Source of the DNA: a virus
Length of the DNA: 48,714 nt
Virus record (IMG/VR): IMGVR_UViG_3300021255_001652
Location: 1-48,714 of that record
Direction: 5' to 3' (one strand)
A model generated the notes under the pieces. The model ran no database searches. It was not told the DNA's origin and saw nothing but the letters and a program-made list of their open reading frames with translations. This document shows positions 10,158 through 11,200 of the stretch, piece by piece; within the stretch, counting starts at the first letter, position 1; the number at the start of each line of letters is the position of its first letter. The position numbers and the translations under genes were made by a program.

Positions 10158-10200
10158 AAAAATGGCGGTAGATAAATAAATTATCTACCGCCATTTTTTT
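10155..10200. terminator. bidirectional rho-independent terminator (14-bp GC-containing stem atggcggtagataa/ttatctaccgccat flanked by A-run and T-run)
   Basis: perfect inverted repeat between convergent genes 9837..10157 (+) and integrase (-); integrase TAA overlaps the T-tract. Confidence 0.7.
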
Positions 10201-11200
10201 ATTTTATAAATTTTCTATATTCTTTTTCTACTTTTTCATCTGTATGATAATAATAAGTCTGTGTAATTGATATATTTGCATGACCTAAAATTTTAGAAAC
10301 ATCTTGAATTGCCATTCCTTTATTTAAAAGATCTGTTGCTAAAGTTCTTCTAAAACGATGCGGATGTATATTTTCAATTCCTGTTTTTTCAGAAATATTC
10401 TATAAAATCCATCGAATTCCGCCAGGAGCAATTCTTTTATTTTTATTATTTAAAAATAAAGCTTCATTATTATCTTTTCTAGTTTTTAAATATAATTTTA
10501 AAGATTCAATAGTTTCATTGTTTAAATAAACTATTCTTTCTTTATTTCCTTTTCCTAAAACAATTAATTTTTTTTCATTAAAATCTATATCTTTAATATT
10601 AACTGAACAAACTTCAGATACTCTACATCCAGTAGAATAAAGAAAATTAACTAAAGCTAAATTTTTAGAATTATTTTTGCAAAAATCTTTTATAATCATT
10701 AATTCTTCTGAAGAAAATGATTTTCTAATTTCTTTTTTTATTTTTATAGGAACAATAGGAACGCAAGGATTAGATTCTATAAATTTTTCATTTGCCATCC
10801 AAGAAAAAACTGCACTTAAATAACTTCTCATAGTTTCTACGGTTGAATTTTGAAGATTTTTTTCTGTTTTCATAGTCATTAAATATAATCTTATTCCATT
10901 CGTAGTAACTTCTTCTATTGAACAATTTAAAAAAGCAAGAAGTAATCTTATTTCTCTATAATATTGTTTTAAAGTGCCTTCAGATTTACCTTCTAATTTT
11001 TTTGTTGCGATATACATTTTTAAAATTTTATCTGTTTTTGAATCAATTGGAACTAAGGCTGTTTGCTTTTCAATTATACCATAATTATACAGATATTTAT
11101 TTAAAACATCTAAAACTTCTTTGGATATTTCTACATCAAATTTTTTAATTAATTCTTCTGTCATTTCATAAACTAATTGATTTTTTAATATCTCTGACAT
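10199..11200 (-). CDS. int: tyrosine recombinase / integrase (XerC/XerD family), one in-frame TAG
   Basis: ORF track 10400..11200 ends in TAG 10400; same frame continues ...HPHRFRRTLATDLLNKGMAIQDVSKILGHANISITQTYYYHTDEKVEKEYRKFIK to TAA 10199; R..H..R..Y catalytic signature (HxxR, LGH, TQTYYH). Confidence 0.8.

Follow-up and report, generated by a model that had tools for sequence, protein, structure and literature searches.

The viral DNA analysed here, the 48,714-nt IMG/VR record IMGVR_UViG_3300021255_001652 (referred to throughout, at its full length, as the window), carries a tyrosine recombinase (integrase) gene whose codon 267, within the catalytic domain, is an in-frame TAG (TAG267). 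The window is clearly TAG-recoded phage DNA, and the host is probably a Gram-positive rumen bacterium. The reading that we favour, with moderate confidence, is that the gene encodes a functional Xer-like recombinase of a large tailed phage, that codon 267 is a sense codon and that synthesis of the protein depends on suppression, the TAG representing tolerated drift and not a switch.

An in-frame TAG in the catalytic domain

Read on the minus strand, positions 10196-11200 translate as MSEILKN...GGIRWIL*NISEKTGIENIHPHRFRRTLAT...TQTYYYHTDEKVEKEYRKFIK, followed by TAA. Homology is unbroken through the TAG: the match to PF00589 covers residues 165-321 in a single stretch (140.7 bits versus a cut-off of 27.1), and TAG267 lies within the alignments to the XerA structures 5HXY and 4A8E, the frame being unchanged. 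Residues 63-139 match the SAM-like core-binding domain PF13495 (47.3 bits), and the PHROG family phrog_1, 'integrase', is matched at 6e-58. As for narrower models, the protein passes the NCBIfam XerA/'integron integrase' model NF040815 by 0.8 bit (220.8 versus a cut-off of 220); it stays below the equivalog cut-offs of XerC and XerD (TIGR02224, 185.7 versus 335.15; TIGR02225, 178.4 versus 329.6) and below that of the integron integrase model TIGR02249 (79.1 bits versus 265). Catalytic residues were placed by alignment to XerA (5HXY and 4A8E) together with invariant family columns. All six, R193, K220, H281, R284, H307 and Y316, are present in the integrase and invariant across the family, and four of them are encoded only beyond TAG267. 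Judged from its sequence, the gene is an intact Xer-like tyrosine recombinase. Its standard-code product of 266 residues would be catalytically dead, because H281, R284, H307 and the nucleophile Y316, without which it cannot cleave DNA, are missing. The phage being TAG-recoded, full-length integrase therefore requires TAG decoding. The preliminary description of this DNA had proposed as much, namely intact catalytic motifs, an in-frame TAG at about codon 267, a truncated standard-code product lacking the HxxR/Y part and a need for TAG suppression, and these points stand.

Recoding is apparent throughout the window. The terminators of its 36 delimited genes are TAA in 32 cases and TGA in four, never TAG, and the genes contain 89 in-frame TAGs. 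Open reading frames (ORFs) that read through TAG include a tape-measure-like one of 2906 codons (36 TAGs), a tail protein of 1604 codons (10) and the endolysin (7), and the first two reach these lengths only if TAG is read through. The early-looking block at 33.4-42.0 kb is nearly TAG-free, with one TAG in ten genes. In the integrase, TAG/(TAG+CAA+CAG) is 1/7, equal to the window mean of 0.135. TAG avoidance is not confined to early genes, because a TAG-free gene group of higher GC content (35-42%) lies inside the late block (14472-17253); a TAG-free protein of 830 residues is encoded in the early block (34847-37339).

A candidate decoder is found in relatives. The window starts inside a DUF2828 gene, and in related IMG/VR sequences the 10 kb upstream of DUF2828 contain arrays of up to 24 tRNAs. 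Nine related contigs carry a tRNA(CUA) gene in these arrays (Table 1); one of them is L279, and its DUF2828 protein shares 98% identity with that of the window. The corresponding position would fall just left of the window, and the window phage would itself carry tRNA(CUA). Such genes have been reported in 35-40% of TAG-recoded phages (Borges et al., bioRxiv 10.1101/2021.08.26.457843).

Under the favoured reading, codon 267 would be read as sense in the phage's own code by the phage tRNA(CUA). A standard-code ribosome of the host would stop after residue 266, leaving the N-terminal and core-binding domains with R193 and K220, and full-length recombinase would appear only in cells that decode TAG. 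The recombinase would be used, or only needed, when the suppressor is present, so TAG could replace sense codons in its gene. Tolerated drift of this kind is the most economical account, more so than a purpose-built lysogeny switch. In this scheme we infer, rather than observe, the tRNA in this phage, the efficient reading of TAG, the inserted residue and the timing of tRNA expression.

The integrase family, represented in metagenomes by about 20 full-length relatives of 65-82% identity, provides further evidence. TAGs recur in two other lineages. In the first, P0024/P0242, which comprises three haplotypes from contigs of 98-149 kb, codon 12 is TAG, at a position where Glu is nearly invariant. 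The second (P0011, at L311:2757-3755) has TAGs at codons 15, 196 and 244, which correspond to a Glu column, to the box-I RxxE glutamate (Glu in 38 of 39) and to an Asp/Asn/Lys column, respectively; codons 196 and 244 lie inside PF00589, and promoter, ribosome-binding site (RBS), terminator and catalytic residues are all intact. No premature TAA or TGA occurs in the family members whose DNA was read. In these AT-rich genes only 10-21% of single-step nonsense mutations would give TAG, so that five TAGs among five premature stops, spread over three lineages, have a chance of about 4e-5 under random nonsense mutation. Furthermore, compared with the closest relative, the rate of nonsynonymous substitution (dN) downstream of TAG267 is 0.047 and that of synonymous substitution (dS) 0.57, a dN/dS of about 0.08 (upstream, dN 0.112 and dS 0.588), and no window-specific nonsynonymous change follows codon 256. 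By this measure no relaxed selection is visible after TAG267. At the position of the TAG, four relatives whose codon was read have CAT (His, three) or AAT (Asn, one), and because of this TAG267 is two mutational steps away from the relatives' codons.

TAG267 is present in five assemblies, the window and four others (L007, L173, L174 and L178). L007 is 100% identical to the window over 11.3 kb, L173 has 2 mismatches in 21 kb and L174 is 100% identical. Another contig from the sample of L173 differs from the window at 52 of 10,835 positions; the TAG is thus fixed despite variation elsewhere.

Most integrases of the family are TAG-free, including ones in TAG-recoded phages. Indeed, the integrases of TAG-recoded L001 (138-kb contig) and L003 contain no TAG, although the genes around them are rich in it. 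In the P0001 lineage the integrase terminator is itself TAG, and read-through under code 15 would add 44 residues; this suggests standard-code translation of the integrase there. The lineage closest to the window copy (L170:2746-3744, protein P0248) has a TAG-terminated integrase, and its read-through extension of about 44 residues would cross the terminator hairpin. Within one integrase family, TAG accordingly ends the gene in one lineage and serves as a sense codon elsewhere.

Decay, gating and other explanations

Several observations weigh against a functional, suppressed gene. Damage affects roughly one in three clusters of the family, in the form of frameshifts (for example L003, P0026 and P0033) or of 5' truncations (for example L008, L009 and L256). 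A sigma-70-type cassette promoter, TTGAAA-17 nt-TGnTATAAT, and an AAGGAG RBS are conserved upstream of the integrase in L170, L171, L001, L003, L175 and L311; the window copy has lost the -35 TTGAAA and the TG of the extended -10, and it has a weaker RBS than the conserved GGAG Shine-Dalgarno of the relatives. A close syntenic relative, L267/L277, has neither the integrase nor the transglutaminase-like gene that lies next to it in the window. Across about 35 homologues the residues in the TAG267 column are His, Lys, Arg, Thr and Asn; neither Gln nor Glu occurs, so that either of these as the inserted residue would be unusual for the position. No tRNA (by ARAGORN) and no Rfam RNA of any kind was found within the 48,714-nt window, whose right end could be extended by only about 550 nt for the tRNA search. 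Had TAG267 arisen only recently as a nonsense mutation, a signal of selection would not be expected so soon. Finally, the independence of the TAG267 assemblies is limited, because all of them apparently come from one study, as judged from sample labels only.

Much of this counts in favour of an incipient pseudogene, in which an accessory and often decaying cassette would have acquired TAG267 as a recent loss-of-function mutation, partly masked by suppression, in a recombinase that is no longer needed. The degraded promoter and RBS, the damaged copies, the syntenic relative without the gene, the many TAG-free relatives and the unusual column all fit it, as does the failure to find an integrated copy among 185,579 representative genomes, where the best match is 45% identical. 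On the other side stand the exclusive use of TAG among the five premature stops of three lineages, the low dN/dS downstream of the TAG (about 0.08), where no second lesion has accumulated, the fixation of the TAG in a population variable elsewhere and its distance of two mutational steps from CAT or AAT. Of the two doubts raised by the preliminary description, that the TAG might be out of frame or the integrase a degraded pseudogene, the first is settled, the TAG being in frame, and the second is unlikely because three lineages carry five in-frame TAGs and no TAA or TGA. Decay nevertheless keeps appreciable weight because copies are damaged, the gene can be absent, the promoter is lost and neither att site nor prophage was found.

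The damaged copies were themselves inspected, since family matches truncated at the N terminus could have concealed further TAGs. This was rejected: L003 has a frameshift, a 1-nt deletion in a T-run of the integrase (L003:9990-10004), and L008, L009 and L256 are 5' truncations joined to unrelated DNA. The regions concerned are L008:1-1146, L009:1-175 and the part of L256 upstream of position 4027, and the unrelated sequence is of higher GC content in L009 and L256. Such truncated and joined copies are either products of decay or chimeric assemblies.

A TAG selected to withhold the integrase until the code switch, or until the suppressor is provided by another phage with this code that resides in the cell or co-infects it, appears improbable; in both versions recombination would be coupled to the state of recoding. 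Dependence on suppression follows directly from the sequence, TAGs occur in the integrases of three lineages, and recoding has been raised as a possible sensor of the suppressor tRNAs of other phages (Borges et al., bioRxiv 10.1101/2021.08.26.457843). However, TAG positions differ from lineage to lineage and most relatives have none, leaving no conserved gate codon, and the TAG terminator of the P0001 lineage points to standard-code translation. The claim that a lysogeny function is 'wired' to the recoding state thus survives in part: the dependence on suppression is supported, whereas no regulatory purpose follows from it, given that most relatives are TAG-free, TAG positions vary, many copies are damaged, the gene is missing from L267 and searches for an att site or a prophage gave none.

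Still less probable, and by a wide distance, is a function of the 266-residue product itself, as a DNA-binding regulator or a dominant-negative partner acting through its core-binding domain without catalysis. The N-terminal extension and the SAM-like domain are indeed retained; however, strong purifying selection acts on the 66 codons that follow the TAG, every catalytic residue is kept and the TAG site is not conserved in relatives. A sequencing or assembly artefact, for which nothing speaks except that such errors are possible a priori, can be dismissed, because the same TAG is found in L007, L173, L174 and L178, in all five assemblies from different pipelines, and differs from the relatives' codon at two positions.

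The residue inserted at TAG

The expectation under code 15, that TAG aligns with Gln, does not hold for the clade of the window. In the endolysin, Gln accounts for only 0-7% of homologous residues at the seven TAG columns, versus 47% at the true Gln positions of the window, and these TAG columns are dominated by Lys and Glu. In a RuvC-like resolvase (17524-18012, minus strand), TAG alternates with Glu across ten DNA-verified relatives. One of the columns concerned, IIM-E-EV, corresponds in an hhalign comparison to the catalytic Glu of E. coli RuvC; the resolvase had no match in PDB by sequence or profile. Among 120 database homologues of the resolvase this column contains E in 79 and 'Q' in 41 and nothing else, the TAGs being rendered as Q by the source, and several other RuvC columns are likewise restricted to E or 'Q'.

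The same picture emerged when the ORFs of the window and of about 48 related loci were compared all against all. A Codetta-like log-likelihood was -1887 for Glu versus -2582 for Gln. The ratio of E to Q per locus is bimodal: examples from the clade of the window are 20:1 and 16:0 (the window itself has 14:6), and an example from a sister clade is 0:9. Split by identity band, E:Q in the window clade is 115:17, 108:37 and 30:5, that is, Glu is 3-7 times as frequent as Gln, and Q:E in the sister clade is 41:3, 42:4 and 67:4. The Glu type is clearest in the resolvase region (17524-18012) of the window and in L257-L276, L283-L286 and L302-L310; with the sister clade, comprising L288-L301 and L304-L305, the comparison has a positive control of its own for code 15. 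The tRNA(CUA) of L279 has a G1-C72 pair and a D loop, AAGCGGUUUAA, that matches that of a phage tRNA-Glu(UUC) exactly and exceeds the D loop of the phage tRNA-Gln by 2 nt. In BLAST, the annotated phage genes most similar to it encode tRNA-Glu. Crude identity to phage tRNAs was also tried as a guide to the isotype of the suppressor and was set aside as not discriminating, with values of 0.65-0.75 for many isotypes.

From these alignments we infer that Glu is favoured over Gln as the residue inserted at TAG, and the clade may use a TAG-to-Glu phage code that has not been described. Besides the poor discrimination of isotypes by tRNA identity, two caveats apply to this reading: the window has about 11 TAG sites of the Gln type, mostly in the coiled coil of the tape-measure protein, and RuvC column 127, a nearly invariant Gln, is TAG in three relatives. 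Many bacteria without GlnRS make Gln-tRNA by transamidating Glu-tRNA, and mixed insertion of Glu and Gln at TAG is conceivable. No phage code of the TAG-to-Glu kind came to light in literature searches. The reassignments seen in phages are stated to be TAG-to-Gln and TGA-to-Trp only (Borges et al., bioRxiv 10.1101/2021.08.26.457843), and the occasional Glu alignments of the Lak study were interpreted there as GAG-to-TAG changes.

If TAG specifies Glu, the TAGs at integrase codons 12, 15 and 196 of the other lineages would be synonymous, and TAG267 would place an acidic residue at a mostly basic position. Taken together, the data allow a broader proposal, to which we give somewhat less credence than even: that this rumen clade has a code in which TAG stands for Glu, or for a mixture of Glu and Gln, by means of a tRNA-Glu-like phage tRNA(CUA); that its integrases, unlike those of all recoded phages described, are partly written in that code; and that the recombinase would be made only in cells already recoded by the phage or by a co-resident phage of the same code. 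Were this true, TAG-to-Glu would be a new natural phage code, and databases would mistranslate the clade by rendering TAG as Gln, as with the 41 of 120 RuvC homologues that have 'Q' at the catalytic Glu. This lead, if it holds, matters more than the integrase case.

Gene neighbourhood, lysogeny and known systems

The features discussed are listed in Table 1.

Table 1. Features around the integrase gene of the window and tRNA(CUA) genes of related contigs
Feature	Coordinates	Strand	Details
Tyrosine recombinase (integrase) gene	10199..11200	minus	ATG at 11200, TAA stop 10199-10201; 333 codons; one in-frame TAG
In-frame TAG, codon 267	10400..10402	minus ('cta' on plus strand)	in the helix preceding the HxxR motif
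Catalytic residues 5' of TAG	10541..10624	minus	R193 (10622-10624, box I CRVSE), K220 (10541-10543, GKGNKER)
Catalytic residues 3' of TAG	10253..10360	minus	H281 (10358-10360), R284 (10349-10351), H307 (10280-10282), nucleophile Y316 (10253-10255)
Bidirectional intrinsic terminator	10155..10201	both	14-bp GC-containing stem between an A-run and a T-run; spans the stop codon of the integrase
Integrase leader, 63 nt	11201..11263	minus	TATAAT hexamer kept
Transglutaminase-like gene	11264..11935	minus	PF01841, E 1.8e-13; 223 codons; TAGs at codons 12, 106, 148
Stem-loop	11983..12015	terminator-like on plus strand only	between the tail-fibre gene and the island of low GC content
Last gene of plus-strand tail block	9837..10157	plus	106 aa, no TAG; converges on the integrase
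Tail-fibre-like protein gene	12033..14078	minus	phrog_5240 tail fiber; 681 codons, 1 TAG; SGNH/GDSL-type C-terminal part
tRNA(CUA) genes	L279:157-232, L283:3735-3806, L284:4094-4167, L285:4239-4312, L302:3155-3230		within tRNA arrays
tRNA(CUA) genes, continued	L303:4415-4490, L306:5629-5707, L307:211-286, L310:2742-2817		within tRNA arrays

The integrase and the transglutaminase-like gene together form an island of 22-24% GC. Because L267/L277 has the hairpin and neither of the two genes, the island is an insertion in a variable cargo slot; L267 keeps the orthologous terminator hairpin after the gene for the 106-residue protein. From such comparisons the integrase site is a hypervariable slot for cargo and host-range genes, and the integrase cassette is self-contained and located at different places in different phages. 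In L267:2820-5250, compared with 10160-13910 of the window, the slot is filled by other small ORFs and the tail fibre has a different C terminus. The tail-fibre-like gene lies upstream of the island on the same strand, and tail genes converge on the integrase site from both sides. The transglutaminase-like gene abuts the integrase leader, and transcription of the window integrase may come from upstream late genes. A terminator search of the region found 6 sites, versus 0.8 expected, and detected the hairpin at the integrase stop codon on both strands. A hairpin follows the integrase in all relatives, with conserved pairing and variable stem sequence. Between the near-identical L004:1102-1150 and L005:2439-2485, the loop of the terminator hairpin is inverted (ATAATA versus TATTAT) and the stems are unchanged. 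The surroundings given in the preliminary description are thus confirmed, namely a bidirectional terminator next to the integrase, a location where two late blocks converge and a transglutaminase-like neighbour with three TAGs. Secretion of the latter, which had also been proposed, is only putative; its N terminus has a hydrophobic stretch that is signal-peptide-like by eye.

The search for a lysogeny module around the gene returned negative results. No att-like repeat pair was found between 6 and 16 kb, only AT-rich chance pairs, and no dif-like site was identified. The two hairpins flanking the integrase-transglutaminase pair were considered as attP, lox-like or dif-like sites and rejected: their stems vary in relatives and yet keep pairing, they are flanked by A/T-runs, and the one at the integrase stop codon is also present in L267, which lacks the integrase. 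attP sites, which the preliminary description had suggested seeking around 10150-10200 and 11940-12030, were accordingly not found there, the hairpins behaving like terminators. Neither IMG/VR, JGI metagenomes nor GTDB (the representative genomes mentioned above) contained an integrated close relative; the best genomic integrase matches, in Lachnospiraceae, are only 43-45% identical. The att duplications that were to be sought in host genomes could thus not be traced, there being no integrated copy from which to read att. No excisionase or repressor was found beside the integrase, whose neighbours are the transglutaminase-like gene and tail genes, within the 48.7 kb available of a genome of probably 100-150 kb. 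The DNA of the region had no match among INPHARED phages. A role as tail-fibre invertase was also considered and rejected: no inverted repeats flank the gene, only AT-rich pairs of 70-86% complementarity that are typical of chance in DNA of 22-30% GC, and the invertase models score 48 and 34 bits versus cut-offs of about 221.

Some further observations concern the ends of the window and the RNA genes of its relatives. The DUF2828 or 'RNA-binding protein' gene (phrog_850; 1-822) has 46% GC, versus 25-30% next door, and is 98-100% identical in relatives whose other genes reach only 78-88%, which suggests a recently exchanged module. At the other end (44558-48302), gyrase B is encoded in two pieces, 45315-46871 and 47880-48302. 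Two ORFs for GIY-YIG/NUMOD endonucleases lie around and between them, at 44558-45322 and at 47052-47762, of which the second contains 4 TAGs; Rfam identified no group I intron there. In relatives, ARAGORN predicted odd tRNAs at L303:5781-5855, L288:902-975, L291:2700-2773, L292:2981-3054, L294:3521-3594, L281:1685-1755 and L282:8297-8367, one with anticodon UUA, which would read TAA, and several with four-base anticodons (taaa, acca). Within the tRNA arrays of related recoded phages it also predicted transfer-messenger RNAs at L001:16989-17263 and L306:7627-7904, with tag peptides ANIYSLAA and ADNYTYQMAA.

Among proteins of solved structure, the integrase most resembles XerA, XerC and XerD (PDB 5HXY, 4A8E and 1A0P; E 4e-29 to 6e-22). 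It shares with them the two-domain layout, in which a SAM-like core-binding domain is followed by a catalytic domain with R-K-H-R-H-Y, and differs in having an extra N-terminal stretch of about 60 residues and in being a phage gene in a cargo slot. The nearest annotated phage integrases are those of Terrisporobacter phage TPELB_ph1 and Clostridium phages phiCp-D and phiCs5676-1 (30-34% identity over >95% of the length). Unlike the gene of the window, these integrases of temperate Clostridia phages and those of Lachnospiraceae are encoded in standard-code genomes without in-frame stops, and they are distant relatives.

Code 15 phages, such as crAss-like and Lak phages, read TAG as Gln, as confirmed by metaproteomics (PMC9523058). 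The clade of the window resembles them in that TAG is never a terminator, late genes are TAG-rich and a tRNA(CUA) is encoded, but its TAGs align mainly with Glu, including the RuvC-like catalytic Glu.

The closest parallel is offered by the Garnet and Topaz prophages, recoded at TAG or TGA. Their integrases significantly avoid recoded stops, with rare in-frame stops only in N- or C-terminal extensions, and the published model has the integrase synthesized in the standard code so that lysogeny can be established (Borges et al., bioRxiv 10.1101/2021.08.26.457843). The window likewise has a tyrosine integrase in a recoded phage of gut or rumen, with recoded stops abounding in the structural and lysis genes, and the relatives L001 and L003 follow the published pattern of a TAG-free integrase. 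By contrast, the catalytic domain itself contains TAGs in the window (codon 267) and in L311 (codons 196 and 244), the phage is much larger (100-150 kb in relatives) and no integrated copy is known. The rule that the conserved body of the integrase contains no recoded stop is broken at these three codons, and TAGs also occur at codons 12 and 15. Since the TAGs lie inside the catalytic domain, the published model of standard-code integrase synthesis cannot apply to the window and L311 copies. As far as its sequence tells, the integrase of the window is a documented exception to the published rule for recoded phages. The clade breaks the partition between an integrase made in the standard code on entry and lytic genes expressed after the switch, with at least three integrase lineages carrying TAGs, two of them in the catalytic domain. 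Either the code switch would be so early, or so lasting in lysogens, that the integrase can rely on it, or the recombinases would act late. The timing and reach of phage recoding thereby become testable on a single protein, with truncated versus full-length product as the readout.

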